Below, in pieces: positions 7,893 to 12,528 of a stretch of DNA of 13,295 nt; positions within the stretch are counted from its first letter, which is position 1, and each line of letters begins with the position of its first letter. The stretch lies in IMG/VR virus record IMGVR_UViG_2671180603_000006. One strand, 5' to 3'. Under the pieces are notes generated by a model, which ran no database searches, was not told the DNA's origin, and was given only the letters and a program-made list of their open reading frames with translations. Made by a program: the position numbers and the translations under genes. Source of the stretch: a virus (lineage: Duplodnaviria; Heunggongvirae; Uroviricota; Caudoviricetes).

Positions 7893-10089
7893 AGCATGGC
7901 AGAAATGTGTTTCATGCTTTTCGGGCGAAGGATATCCGACTTCTGTACGGAATGGCAAGTGGCGGTTAATTTATTCAGGGGAAGGCTGTATGGGAAAAGG
8001 TGGCGGTAAGGCACACACGCCTCGTGAGGCGAAGGATAATCTCAAATCCACGCAGATGATGAGCGTGATTGATGCGATTGGTGAGGGACCGATAGAAGGT
8101 CCGGTGAAGGGACTGCAGAGTATCCTGGTGAACAAAACCCCGCTGACGGACACGGACGGTAATCCCGTGATACACGGTGTGACGGCGGTCTGACGCGCCG
8201 GGGAGCAGGAGCAGACACCACCGGAAGGCTTTGAGTCCTCCGGTGCTGAAACCGGACTGGGCGTGGAAGTGACGAAGGCAAAACCGGTGACGCGCACCAT
8301 TACGTCCGCGAACATTGACCGCCTGCGGGTTACCTTCGGGGTGCAGTCACTGGTGCAGACCACGTCAAAGGGTGACCGAAACCCGACATCCGTCCGCCTG
8401 CTGATTCAGTTACAGCGTAACGGTAACTGGGTGACAGAAAAGGATGTCACCATTAACGGCAAGACCACCTCGCAGTTTCTGGCGTCGGTGATTCTGGATA
8501 ATCTGCCTCCCCGTCCTTTTAACATCCGGATGGTCCGGGAGACAGCGGACAGCACCACGGACCAGCTGCAGAATAAGACGCTGTGGTCGTCATACACCGA
8601 AATCATCGATGTGAAACAGTGCTACCCGAACACGGCCATTGTGGGGCTGCAGGTGGATGCGGAGCAGTTCGGCGGCCAGCAGATGACGGTGAACTACCAT
8701 ATCCGCGGTCGCATCATCCAGGTGCCGTCAAACTATGACCCGGAAAAACGCACGTACAGTGGTATCTGGGACGGCAGCCTGAAACCGGCATACAGCAACA
8801 ATCCGGCCTGGTGTCTGTGGGACATGCTGACTCACCCGCGCTACGGCATGGGAAAACGTCTGGGGGCGGCGGATGTGGACAAGTGGGCGCTGTATGCCAT
8901 CGGGCAGTACTGCGACCAGACGGTCCCGGATGGTTTCGGGGAGACCGAGCCGCGGATGACCTTCAATGCGTACCTGGCACAACAGCGTAAGGCATGGGAC
9001 GTGCTCAGTGATTTCTGCTCGGCGATGCGCTGTATGCCGGTATGGAACGGCCAGACGCTGACGTTTGTTCAGGACCGCCCGTCGGATGTGGTGTGGCCGT
9101 ACACCAACAGCGATGTGGTGGTGGATGATAACGGCGTGGGTTTCCGCTACAGCTTCAGTGCCCTGAAGGACCGGCACACGGCGGTGGAGGTGAATTATAC
9201 CGACCCGCAGAACGGCTGGCAGACCTCCACGGAACTGGTGGAAGACCCGGAAGCCATACTGCGCTACGGACGCAACCTGCTGAAGATGGACGCGTTCGGC
9301 TGTACCAGCCGCGGTCAGGCCCACCGTGCCGGACTGTGGGTGATAAAGACCGAACTGCTGGAAACGCAGACGGTGGATTTCACGCTCGGGTCTCAGGGGC
9401 TGCGGCACACACCCGGTGACATCATTGAAATCTGTGATAACGACTATGCCGGGACCCTGACCGGCGGACGTGTCCTGTCCATTGATGCTGCCACCCGCAC
9501 TCTGACGCTGGACCGTGAAGTGACACTTCCGGAGACCGGTGCCGCCACGGTGAACCTGATTAACGGCAGCGGTAAGCCGGTGAGTGTGGACATCACCGAA
9601 CACCCCGCGCCGGACCGGATACAGGTCAGTACCCTGCCTGATGGTGTGGAGACATACGGGGTGTGGGGACTCTCCCTGCCGTCACTGCGCCGTCGCCTGT
9701 TCCGCTGTGTCTCCGTCCGGGAAAACACGGACGGCACCTTTGCCATCACGGCGGTGCAGCACGTACTGGAAAAAGAAGCCATCGTGGATAACGGTGCCCG
9801 CTTTGAGCCGCAGTCAGGTTCCCTGAACAGCGTCATCCCACCGGCAGTGCAGCACCTGACGGCCAGTATCTGGCGCAGGCGAAATGGGACACGCCGCGGG
9901 TGGTGAAGGGTGTGCGCTTCAGTCTGCGCCTGACCAGTGGTAAGGGAACGGATGCCAGACTGGTGACCACCGCCATCACCGCAGACACGGAGCACCGTTT
10001 CAGCGGCCTGCCGCTCGGGGAATACACCCTGACGGTGCGGGCGATAAACAGCTATGGCCAGCAGGGTGAACCTGCCACCACCACCTTCC

Positions 10090-10544
10090 GGATTGCCGCA
10101 CCGGCAGCACCGTCGCGGATTGAGCTGACGCCGGGCTATTTTCAGATAACCGCCACGCCGCATCTTGCGGTTTATGATCCGACGGTACAGTTTGAGTTCT
10201 GGTTCTCGGAAAAGCGGATTGCGGATATCAGGCAGGTTGAAACCAGCGCCCGCTATCTTGGCACGGCGCTGTACTGGATAGCCGCCAGTATCAATATCAA
10301 ACCGGGCCATGATTATTACTTTTATATCCGCAGTGTGAACACCGTTGGCAAATCGGCATTCGTGGAGGCTGTCGGTCGGGCGAGCGATGATGCGGAAGGT
10401 TACCTGGATTTTTTCAAAGGAGAGATAGGGAAAACACATCTGGCTCAGGAGCTGTGGACGCAGATTGATAACGGTCAGCTTGCGCCGGACCTGACTGAAA
10501 TCAGGACGTCCATTACGGATGTCAGCAATGAAATCACGCAGACA
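10090..10544 (+). repeat. tandem direct repeat copy 1 (455 bp) inside J
   Basis: ggattgccgcaccggcagcaccgtcgcggattgagctgacg... to ...gtcagcaatgaaatcacgcagaca; repeated immediately downstream with about 17 mismatches (roughly 96% identical). Confidence 0.9.
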
Positions 10545-10999
10545 GGATTGCCGCACCGGCAGCACCGTCGCGGATTGAGCTGACGCCGGGCTATTTTCAG
10601 ATAACCGCCACGCCGCATCTTGCGGTTTATGATCCGACGGTACAGTTTGAGTTCTGGTTCTCGGAAAAGCGGATTGCGGATATCAGGCAGGTTGAAACCA
10701 CAGCACGCTATCTTGGCACGGCGCTGTACTGGATAGCCGCCAGTATCAATATCAAACCGGGCCATGATTATTATTTTTACGTTCGCAGTGTGAACACCGT
10801 TGGCAAATCGGCATTCGTGGAGGCTGTTGGTCAGCCGAGTGATGATGCATCCGGTTATCTGGATTTTTTCAAAGGCGAGATAGGGAAAACCCATCTGGCT
10901 CAGGAGCTGTGGACGCAGATTGATAACGGTCAGCTTGCGCCTGACCTGGCTGAAATCAGGACGTCCATTACGGATGTCAGCAATGAAATCACGCAGACC
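10545..10999 (+). repeat. tandem direct repeat copy 2 (455 bp) inside J
   Basis: Same 455 bp unit starting directly at the end of copy 1; 455 is not a multiple of 3, so the J frame shifts at the junction (premature TGA at 10581-10583). The correct J frame resumes inside copy 2 and is open from 10532 to the stop at 11912-11914. Confidence 0.9.
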
Positions 11000-11936
11000 G
11001 TCAATAAGAAACTGGAAGACCAGAGTGCGGCAATTCAGCAGATACAGAAGGTTCAGGTTGATACAAATAATAACCTGAACAGCATGTGGGCTGTGAAGCT
11101 GCAGCAGATGCAGGACGGACGCCTTTATATCGCGGGTATTGGTGCCGGTATTGAGAACACCCCTGACGGCATGCAGAGTCAGGTGCTGCTGGCGGCGGAC
11201 AGGATTGCGATGGTTAATCCTGCGAATGGCAACACAAAACCGATGTTTGTTGGTCAGGGCGATCAGATATTCATGAACGACGTGTTCCTGAAACGCCTGA
11301 CGGCCCCCACCATTACCAGCGGTGGAAATCCATCGGCATTTTCCCTGACTCCGGACGGAAAGCTGACCGCTAAAAATGCGGATATCAGTGGCAGTGTGAA
11401 TGCGAACGCCGGGACGCTCAACAATGTCACGGTAAATGAAAACTGTACGATTAAGGGCATGCTGGAGGCGACTCAGGTCAGAGGTGACTTCGTTAAAGCT
11501 GTATCCAAATCATTTCCGAAACAGGCTGGTACGTGGGGTAACACGGAAACACCAAACGGGACGGTTACAGTCACCATAAGCGATGATCATAACTTTGACC
11601 GCCAGATTATTATTCCGCCCATTATTTTTAACGGTATAGCGTATGACGATCCGGGGAGCGGAAATAACCCAGGAGGCACGCGATACACGGGTTATGGTTT
11701 TGAAGTTCGCAAAAACGGCGTATTAATCGCATCCAGAGAAACTAAAGGTGCCATTCCCGGTAGTTACAGTGCAGTTATTGATATGCCTAGTGGTGGTGGT
11801 AGCGTCACTCTGGAGTTTAAGATTTTCCAGAAAGGCAATCAGGGGGCAGGCAATATCACCGACTGTACGGTGATTGTGACCAAAAAAGCGGCTTCCGGCA
11901 TCAGTATTCGTTGAAATATTTATAACCCCAATAAAT

Positions 11937-11960
11937 GGCGTCAGGAATGACGCCTTTTTT
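11937..11960 (+). terminator. intrinsic terminator downstream of J
   Basis: Stem GGCGTCA / TGACGCC with loop GGAA, followed by TTTTTT (11955-11960), 23 nt after the J stop. Confidence 0.7.
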
Positions 11961-11984
11961 ATTGCAGAAAAGCGAGAGGTAATT

Positions 11985-12467
11985 ATGCGTAAAGTTTGTG
12001 CAGCCATTTTGTCCGCAGCCATTTGCCTGGCCGTATCCGGTGCGCCTGCATGGGCGTCTGAACATCAGTCCACGCTGAGCGCGGGGTATCTTCATGCCCG
12101 GACCAACGTTCCCGGCAGTGATGATCTGAACGGGATTAACGTGAAATACCGTTATGAGTTTACGGATACGCTGGGGCTGGTGACGTCATTCAGCTATGCA
12201 GGAGACAAGAATCGCCAGCTGACCCGTTACAGCGATACCCGCTGGCATGAAGATTCCGTGCGTAACCGCTGGTTCAGCGTGATGGCGGGGCCGTCTGTGC
12301 GCGTGAATGAATGGTTCAGCGCGTATGCGATGGCGGGTGTGGCTTACAGCCGTGTGTCGACTTTTTCCGGGGATTATATCCGCGTAACTGACAATAAGGG
12401 GAAAACGCACGATGTGCTGACCGGAAGTGATGGCGGTCGCCACAGCAACACGTCTCTGGCGCACTGA
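11985..12467 (+). CDS. lom: Lom / Ail-PagC-Rck family outer membrane beta-barrel protein (moron gene), apparently C-terminally truncated by a frameshift; probable pseudogene
   Basis: 160 aa ORF with a signal peptide (MRKVCAAILSAAICLAVSGAPAWA) and Lom-like core (...GINVKYRYEFTD...WFSVMAGPSV...SAYAMAGVAYSR...). The family-typical C-terminal strand WRTDGFIVGVGYKF* is encoded in a different frame at 12457-12501. Lambda Lom is about 206 aa. SD GAGAGG upstream. Confidence 0.75.
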   Translation: MRKVCAAILSAAICLAVSGAPAWASEHQSTLSAGYLHARTNVPGSDDLNGINVKYRYEFTDTLGLVTSFSYAGDKNRQLTRYSDTRWHEDSVRNRWFSVMAGPSVRVNEWFSAYAMAGVAYSRVSTFSGDYIRVTDNKGKTHDVLTGSDGGRHSNTSLAH

Positions 12468-12528
12468 CGGTTTCATCGTGGGTGTCGGTTATAAATTCTG
12501 ATTAGCCAGGTAACACAGTGTTATGACA

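Follow-up and report, generated by a model that had tools for sequence, protein, structure and literature searches.

The window analysed here, a 13,295 bp stretch of phage DNA (IMG/VR record IMGVR_UViG_2671180603_000006), is the entire record GCA_001252175.1:CXDK01000122.1 of a draft Shigella sonnei assembly, and it carries a lambda-type tail module followed by a fragmented J gene and a short lom. We found that the window is very probably a short-read S. sonnei scaffold that joins two lambdoid prophage remnants across a gap of a single N at position 10544. We call prophage A the locus that matches window 1-10543, and locus B the different prophage that matches window 10545-13295. The J of prophage A is dead by two independent lesions that are fixed across S. 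sonnei assemblies, and the largest defect of this prophage lies upstream, where nested insertion sequence (IS) elements take the place of the genes from downstream of the holin region through most of FII. A preliminary description of this DNA, made from its letters, had seen three lesions in J and a fourth in lom, with intact tail genes before them, and had proposed that the receptor-binding end of one prophage was decaying. As discussed below, this picture changes once the gap is recognized.

The proteins of the record carry Shigella sonnei names in the source databases. The only difference between the public record (L003 and L007, which are one record; L numbers designate the loci compared) and the window file is the character at 10544, and the base written there agrees with neither prophage A nor locus B. 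To the left of it, window 1-10543 aligns without any gap and with 99.84-99.9% identity to eleven prophage-A loci from ten other S. sonnei assemblies, a set of drafts and closed or near-closed chromosomes, the latter being 53G (HE616528.1, L022; 99.84% identity, zero gaps), CP032523.1 and UGZB01000001.1. To the right, window 10545-13295 aligns, also with zero gaps, at 99.75% identity to positions 9756-12506 of the closed chromosome CP026802.1 (L004), our reference for locus B, where it lies downstream of the tail genes of its own prophage, and these share only about 78% identity with the tail genes in the window. The features around the junction are:

10544, no strand: scaffold gap, N in CXDK01000122.1 versus A in the window file
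10090-10544 and 10545-10999, + strand: apparent 455-bp tandem duplication, frame-shifting, with copies that differ at 21 sites (4.6%)
10090-10543 (prophage A) and 10545-10998 (locus B), + strand: homologous stretches of J placed side by side
10545-11914, + strand: 3' part of J of locus B, gapless and 99.75% identical to CP026802.1

The duplication had been taken as the third lesion of J, and this claim gave way to an out-of-register scaffold join with an N at 10544. Because of the N, no continuous sequenced DNA runs over the junction, and the two copies do not share one locus of origin, copy 1 belonging to prophage A and copy 2 to locus B. The 227-amino-acid (aa) open reading frame (ORF) that spans the join exists on this contig only. 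When the duplication region was compared with 5,426 complete Escherichia coli genomes, both query pieces mapped to one 454-bp stretch in each match listed, and none of the 4,529 matching E. coli records exceeded 99% identity. An exact search of species-representative genomes, a set that probably has no separate entry for S. sonnei, returned no match for a 40-mer across the junction, where the record moreover has an N.

The distribution of alleles around the junction points in the same direction. Against the eleven prophage-A loci, the window has one private difference within 1-10089 and nine within 10090-10543; seven of these nine are locus-B alleles and the other two come from a third J paralogue. 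On the other side, the right part of the window differs from the true locus B at seven sites, six of which carry prophage-A alleles, and a patch of four single-nucleotide polymorphisms (SNPs) at 10319-10328 is reciprocally swapped with 10774-10783. Such a reciprocal swap fits a mis-phased traversal of the repeat graph, not gene conversion or a real duplication. The most likely sequence of events is that the two J paralogues, about 95% identical here and with long exact shared stretches, linked contigs via read pairs, and that the contigs were then set out of register by 455 bp while SNP patches were exchanged between the copies. In the Sanger Velvet/SSPACE/GapFiller pipeline, joined contigs receive N gaps, and greedy tools can yield false joins (PMC5320598). 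The window resembles the false joins and mis-phased repeats of short-read assemblies of this type in the N at the join, the paralogues out of register and the swapped SNP patches, and the corresponding prophage regions of the sibling drafts L005, L006, L015, L017 and L018 likewise contain odd joins marked by N. It differs from them in that the N was turned into an A in the supplied window, hence the gap was invisible when the preliminary description was made.

The same arrangement could also be a real structural variant, in which the J genes of A and B recombined illegitimately and out of register to give a hybrid J with a diverged tandem duplication, the N being one uncalled base. The A and B parts are indeed adjacent in the record, repeats and IS elements rearrange S. 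sonnei genomes (PMC7373316), and the similar A-to-B order of the draft L015 could be a shared rearrangement. However, the equivalent join of L015 is NNNNN, where the record of the window has one N, and the breakpoints differ, the A side of L015 being about 37 bp longer. The junction shows no homology, the reciprocal allele swaps suit graph mis-phasing and not gene conversion, the join-spanning ORF is restricted to a single contig, and in every closed genome A and B each continue collinearly into their own 3' end. We therefore regard a real variant as very unlikely.

Several points nevertheless weigh against the reconstruction that we prefer, a false join between prophage A and locus B followed by the history given below. 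The false join would follow from the N, the closed genomes of other strains and the allele swaps, rather than from reads of this isolate. Prophage A and locus B were each seen in different closed genomes, not at separate sites of one. The origin of the assembly in the Sanger pipeline is deduced from its accession, which belongs to the CX series, and from the pattern of its Ns. Finally, a short time is most likely the reason for the intact Z to I genes, and this is something we infer.

Two other candidates for the junction were discarded. An old, real tandem duplication with 4.6% divergence between its copies was rejected since each copy matches a different locus and an N was found. An IS boundary was rejected since, in L004, L008 and L010, the sequence of locus B before 10545 is still homologous to J, and in all other assemblies prophage A goes on beyond the junction.

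The left part of the window carries the J of prophage A and its two lesions:

7990-10543, + strand: J pseudogene of prophage A, 5' 2.55 kb, gapless match to the eleven S. sonnei loci
8191-8193, + strand: lesion 1, real, a TGG to TGA nonsense change at J codon 68 (W68*)
9855/9856, + strand: lesion 2, real, a 22-bp deletion with frameshift between the 10-bp near-repeats CACCTGACGG and CAGCTGACGG

The J of the window is a pseudogene of lambda gpJ. It lies downstream of I and upstream of lom, and the stretches that it matches in E. coli and phage records are annotated as gpJ. The Pfam series of gpJ (FNIII-A_GpJ, Phage-tail_3, Ig_J, Ig_J_second, Phage_Tail_Tip, Ig_GpJ_C) is found in order over the fragments of 547, 227 and 374 aa, while no domain match is on record for the 67-aa N-terminal fragment. 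As intact references we used E. coli 2013C-4991 and phage ASU11 (ON416862.2), with a J of 1163 aa, and ML35 (CP025747.1, L026) and two NCTC strains, with a J of 1157 aa; the 5' part of J in the window is 96.5-97.8% identical to the E. coli prophages with the intact 1157-aa protein. A single frame of about 1130-1160 codons is not present, either here or in the closed S. sonnei genomes, given the stop at codon 68 and the 22-bp deletion.

At lesion 1, intact relatives read GTCTGGCGC versus GTCTGACGC in the window. The 67-aa ORF that this change creates is found on 111 contigs and is called at the same position in closed genomes, and the 547-aa ORF created by the 22-bp deletion is found on 24 contigs from several projects. 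Both lesions are common to all eleven prophage-A loci compared (ten assemblies, 53G included). In 53G, CP032523.1 and UGZB01000001.1, the J of prophage A appears as fragments of 67, 547 and 513 aa, thus it has just the nonsense codon and the 22-bp deletion. Regarding E. coli, the best matches listed all retain the 22 bp (433 record bases per 411 query bases); for the deletion region in the 5,426 complete genomes, none of the 1,899 matching records was above 99% identity and no copy of the lesion occurred among the matches listed. Since the lesions were missing from the listed E. coli matches, the search pointed to Shigella and not to E. coli proper.

Sequencing or assembly errors might be invoked for lesions 1 and 2 as well, the J of prophage A being then really intact, as the J region is multi-copy and the assembler was shown to have mixed paralogue alleles nearby. 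But the lesions are aligned gapless, and without mismatch at those sites, in eleven loci of ten other assemblies that come from different projects and include finished genomes. Besides, the diagnostic 67-aa and 547-aa ORFs recur on the numbers of contigs given above, and a 22-bp deletion is untypical as an Illumina or de Bruijn error. The chance that these two lesions are errors is negligible, and the first two breaks in J, as initially described, stand confirmed by many independent assemblies and closed genomes.

In the prophage A of closed genomes, a lom of 199 aa and an stf side-fibre gene of 918 aa, both called complete, follow J, and assembly genes come next. Upstream, the interval from the holin region to Z in 53G and CP032523.1 contains an IS21-family element that is itself split by one of the IS3 family, and no terminase, portal, head or complete FII gene was called in this interval of the two genomes. 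At the same place, the intact E. coli relatives (ML35 and the two NCTC strains) carry Nu1 through FII, with a J of 1157 aa. IS elements in place of the terminase and head genes through most of FII, together with two lesions in J, identify a defective prophage. This had been suspected from the beginning, as had a host with several prophages, and both ideas gained support from the IS-driven loss of head genes, the twice-hit J and the presence of at least three J paralogues in S. sonnei. The accompanying suggestion that a co-resident phage could supply tail-tip functions in trans is moot, prophage A having no head genes.

Prophage A was also compared with known elements. The cryptic lambdoid prophage of S. 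sonnei 53G (HE616528.1) has the same Z-J order and the same two J lesions, with 99.84% identity over 1-10543; there is no biological difference between both, and the window only adds a spurious run into another prophage past 10543. The prophage of ML35 shares the gene set Z-U-V-G-T-H-M-L-K-I-J-lom-stf, the G-T slippery site and the I-J spacer, with 97.8% nucleotide identity over window 35-10543. Phage ASU11, compared over L to stf only, shares the tail-gene order and is about 94% identical in the L-to-J and J-to-lom alignments. The difference lies in the intact J of the ML35/ASU11 type (1157-1163 aa) and the complete head module of ML35, whereas the S. sonnei copy has W68*, the 22-bp deletion and head genes lost to IS. 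IS-driven genome decay is a known pattern in Shigella (PMC7373316). In this sense, the real feature of this window is an ordinary IS-truncated cryptic prophage, already known, whose lesions are present in finished public S. sonnei genomes.

To the right of the gap, locus B contributes the following features:

10790-11914, + strand: 374-aa ORF in the J of locus B, an ORF-calling effect
11985-12467, + strand: lom of locus B, 160 aa instead of 199 aa, with a 77-bp deletion near the 3' end
12566-13295, + strand: 5' end of a 1027-aa tail-fibre gene of locus B, cut by the record end, from gene calls in L003, L004 and L005-L008

The truncation of lom is real, but it is in locus B and not in prophage A. 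The junction of the deletion is at 12456-12461, with 6 bp of microhomology. The product has a match to PF06316 of the Ail/Lom outer-membrane beta-barrel type and does not reach the full length of about 199 aa. The 160-aa lom is called in closed L004 too, where the window aligns gapless. Of the fourth lesion ascribed to lom, then, the truncation holds, and its attribution does not, as it belongs to another prophage, on the right of the gap. No additional nonsense lesion precedes the 374-aa ORF, since the J frame is open from 10547 to 10790.

Other changes were seen in locus B. At window position 12433, within lom, there is a G here and an A in L004, L008 and L010; this change, which may be a private SNP or a paralogue allele, probably accounts for the absence of the exact 160-aa lom sequence from other contigs. 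In CP026802.1, the tape-measure gene of the prophage of locus B (2664-5226) is split into 447 and 414 aa, and at about 9722 the J has a frameshift in a G run, GGGG versus GGGGG in the drafts L008 and L010. The split and the frameshift in L004 may be real decay or long-read homopolymer errors.

With the lesions assigned to their loci, the question of clustering can be addressed. As first claimed, four of four lesions fall in 4.5 of 12.4 kb (p = 0.018). For the two real lesions, the probability that both lie in J is p = 0.10 if Z to J is considered, and p = 0.054 when the intact lom, stf and tfa of prophage A are added; these corrected values are not significant for a pattern picked after seeing the data. 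Neither do substitutions set J apart. Compared with intact E. coli relatives, J has a ratio of nonsynonymous to synonymous changes (pN/pS) of 0.07-0.20 and Z to I have ratios of 0-0.30, and the nonsynonymous to synonymous counts of SNPs within S. sonnei are 3:2 for J and 4:4 for Z to I. Thus relaxed constraint in J relative to the upstream genes gave no difference by dN/dS (the corresponding ratio of substitution rates) or by within-species SNPs, with little statistical power in these comparisons, and there is no sign that J has been decaying for longer, or faster, than its neighbours.

These results bear directly on the model of the preliminary description, in which a single prophage acquired four independent lesions in J and lom and its adsorption module decayed neutrally while the upstream genes were spared. 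All four frame breaks are visible in the letters of the window when set against intact J genes, Z to I are intact, and the face-value clustering is the one given above. Against this, one lesion is a scaffold gap, the 3' end of J and lom come from the other prophage, the own lom of prophage A is intact, head genes and FII are gone, pN/pS of J is not elevated, and the corrected clustering has p = 0.05-0.10. We consider this model highly improbable. The concentration of lesions at the receptor-binding end dissolves, with the third J lesion being the gap, lom lying in locus B, and the lom and stf of prophage A being complete; a neutral decay of the tail tip after a first hit loses its footing, since pN/pS of J is not raised. 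The preliminary description had itself named assembly errors among the lesions and damage in upstream genes as findings that would speak against it, and both turned up in part, the former as the third J lesion and the latter as the loss of FII and the head genes.

What remains is a simpler history. IS activity cost a lambdoid prophage, a close relative of intact E. coli prophages, its head module, and its J took two independent hits, one a point nonsense change and the other a deletion between the 10-bp near-repeats, which would be of the slippage type. Since both hits are common to all eleven prophage-A loci, they would have arisen before the sampled strains of S. sonnei diverged. The common ancestor of sampled S. 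sonnei isolates has been dated to the late 17th century, and S. sonnei chromosomes carry a median of 286 IS insertions (PMC7373316). All S. sonnei assemblies examined have open Z to I genes, with 0 lesions in 7.5 kb, although the head genes are lost and J is dead. The most likely explanation would be that too little time has passed for these genes to decay, rather than that selection preserves them. Alternatively, selection could keep Z to I if their tail-tube or tape-measure components benefit the host. The 0 lesions in 7.5 kb and the 4:4 SNPs are compatible with this idea but lend it no positive support, and we give it only a very slight chance compared with the short time available.

The main value of this case is as a caution, given that changing an N to a base made a false frameshifting duplication and attached the broken lom of a neighbouring prophage. 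When gap characters are replaced by bases, scaffold joins become hidden, and false lesions and apparent selective patterns can be created. In poly-lysogens such as Shigella and enterohaemorrhagic E. coli, paralogous tail genes are mis-joined or mis-phased in drafts, and therefore pseudogene counts and inferences of decay patterns from such assemblies are unsafe.

Sibling drafts of the CX series (L005, L006, L012, L015, L017, L018) were seen to include several with N-marked joins and prophage pieces in impossible orders. For example, L018 places Z after a truncated L gene, L017 has two copies each of the J 3' end and lom, and in L012 a patch of locus-B SNPs lies within prophage A, at 10246-10250 of the window. 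The prophage regions of these sibling assemblies are generally unreliable.

Regarding the rest of prophage A, the order on the + strand is that of a lambda-type tail module, Z, U, V, G, T, H, M, L, K, I, followed by the fragmented J, the short lom and the start of the fibre gene. The ten-gene set was recognized by ORFs and Pfam matches:

1-34, no strand: junction sequence beside the IS21-family element, with no alignment to FII of intact relatives
35-109, + strand: FII 3' remnant, its last 25 codons, SPDDGGSCYLWLNRGQPPAVNRRR followed by a stop, equal to the C-terminus of the 117-aa FII of L021 and L023
124-7646, + strand: block of ten open tail genes of prophage A
124-699, + strand: Z
696-1091, + strand: U
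1099-1851, + strand: V
1865-2296, + strand: G
2272-2278, + strand: slippery heptamer G GGA AAG of the G-T -1 frameshift, close to the end of G and in its zero frame; the T ORF is read in the -1 frame
To 2736 (T ORF 2323-2736), + strand: T frame
2717-5290, + strand: H
5287-5616, + strand: M
5616-6314, + strand: L
6325-7068, + strand: K
6966-7646, + strand: I
7647-7989, no strand: AT-rich spacer of 343 bp, GC content 0.47, with no gene called in any locus

An istA gene of the IS21 family lies directly upstream in 53G (L022) and L012, and the contig starts where this multi-copy IS ends. Of the eleven upstream tail genes described initially as intact, the ten from Z to I are open, and FII is reduced to its last 25 codons. 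The lengths of Z to I are the same as in intact E. coli relatives with the exception of Z, which has 191 aa here and in L023 and L024, and 177 aa in L021 and L026; the only coding indels against L026 and L021 are in frame and in Z. These correspond to 42 extra bases (14 codons, in frame) at window 495-556 versus ML35 and L021, the same 191-aa allele as in L023 and L024. The difference is ordinary mosaicism and no lesion. The G-T slippery site, in agreement with its first description, is present as GGGAAAG at 2272, read GCG GGA AAG, and frameshifting at this site is predicted.

In H, codon 504 has a T at window 4226 where all eleven other prophage-A loci have a C, an Arg to Cys change, so that no other contig has exactly this tape-measure protein. 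The T may represent a genuine private SNP or another allele leaked from a paralogue.

Outside the window, downstream of the stf of prophage A (L012-L014, L016, L027, L029), we observed opposed Caudo_TAP genes, alternative fibre C-termini and a small ORF of the resolvase family. The fibre region of prophage A looks like an invertible host-range segment.

The spacer between I and J has a 113-aa ORF with a GTG start (7668-8009) that has no support as a gene. A scan of the whole window against Rfam gave zero structured-RNA matches, and none in the spacer. On the minus strand of the spacer there is a strong sigma-70-like promoter, TTCACA-16-TATAAT, from 7784 to 7757 (11 of 12 matches), and a terminator-like hairpin at 7678-7662; judging from these motifs, the spacer could encode a putative small antisense transcript of about 90 nt. 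A palindrome with a 9-bp stem is found at about 7860-7882. Related phages have sodC or a hypothetical ORF at the position of this spacer.

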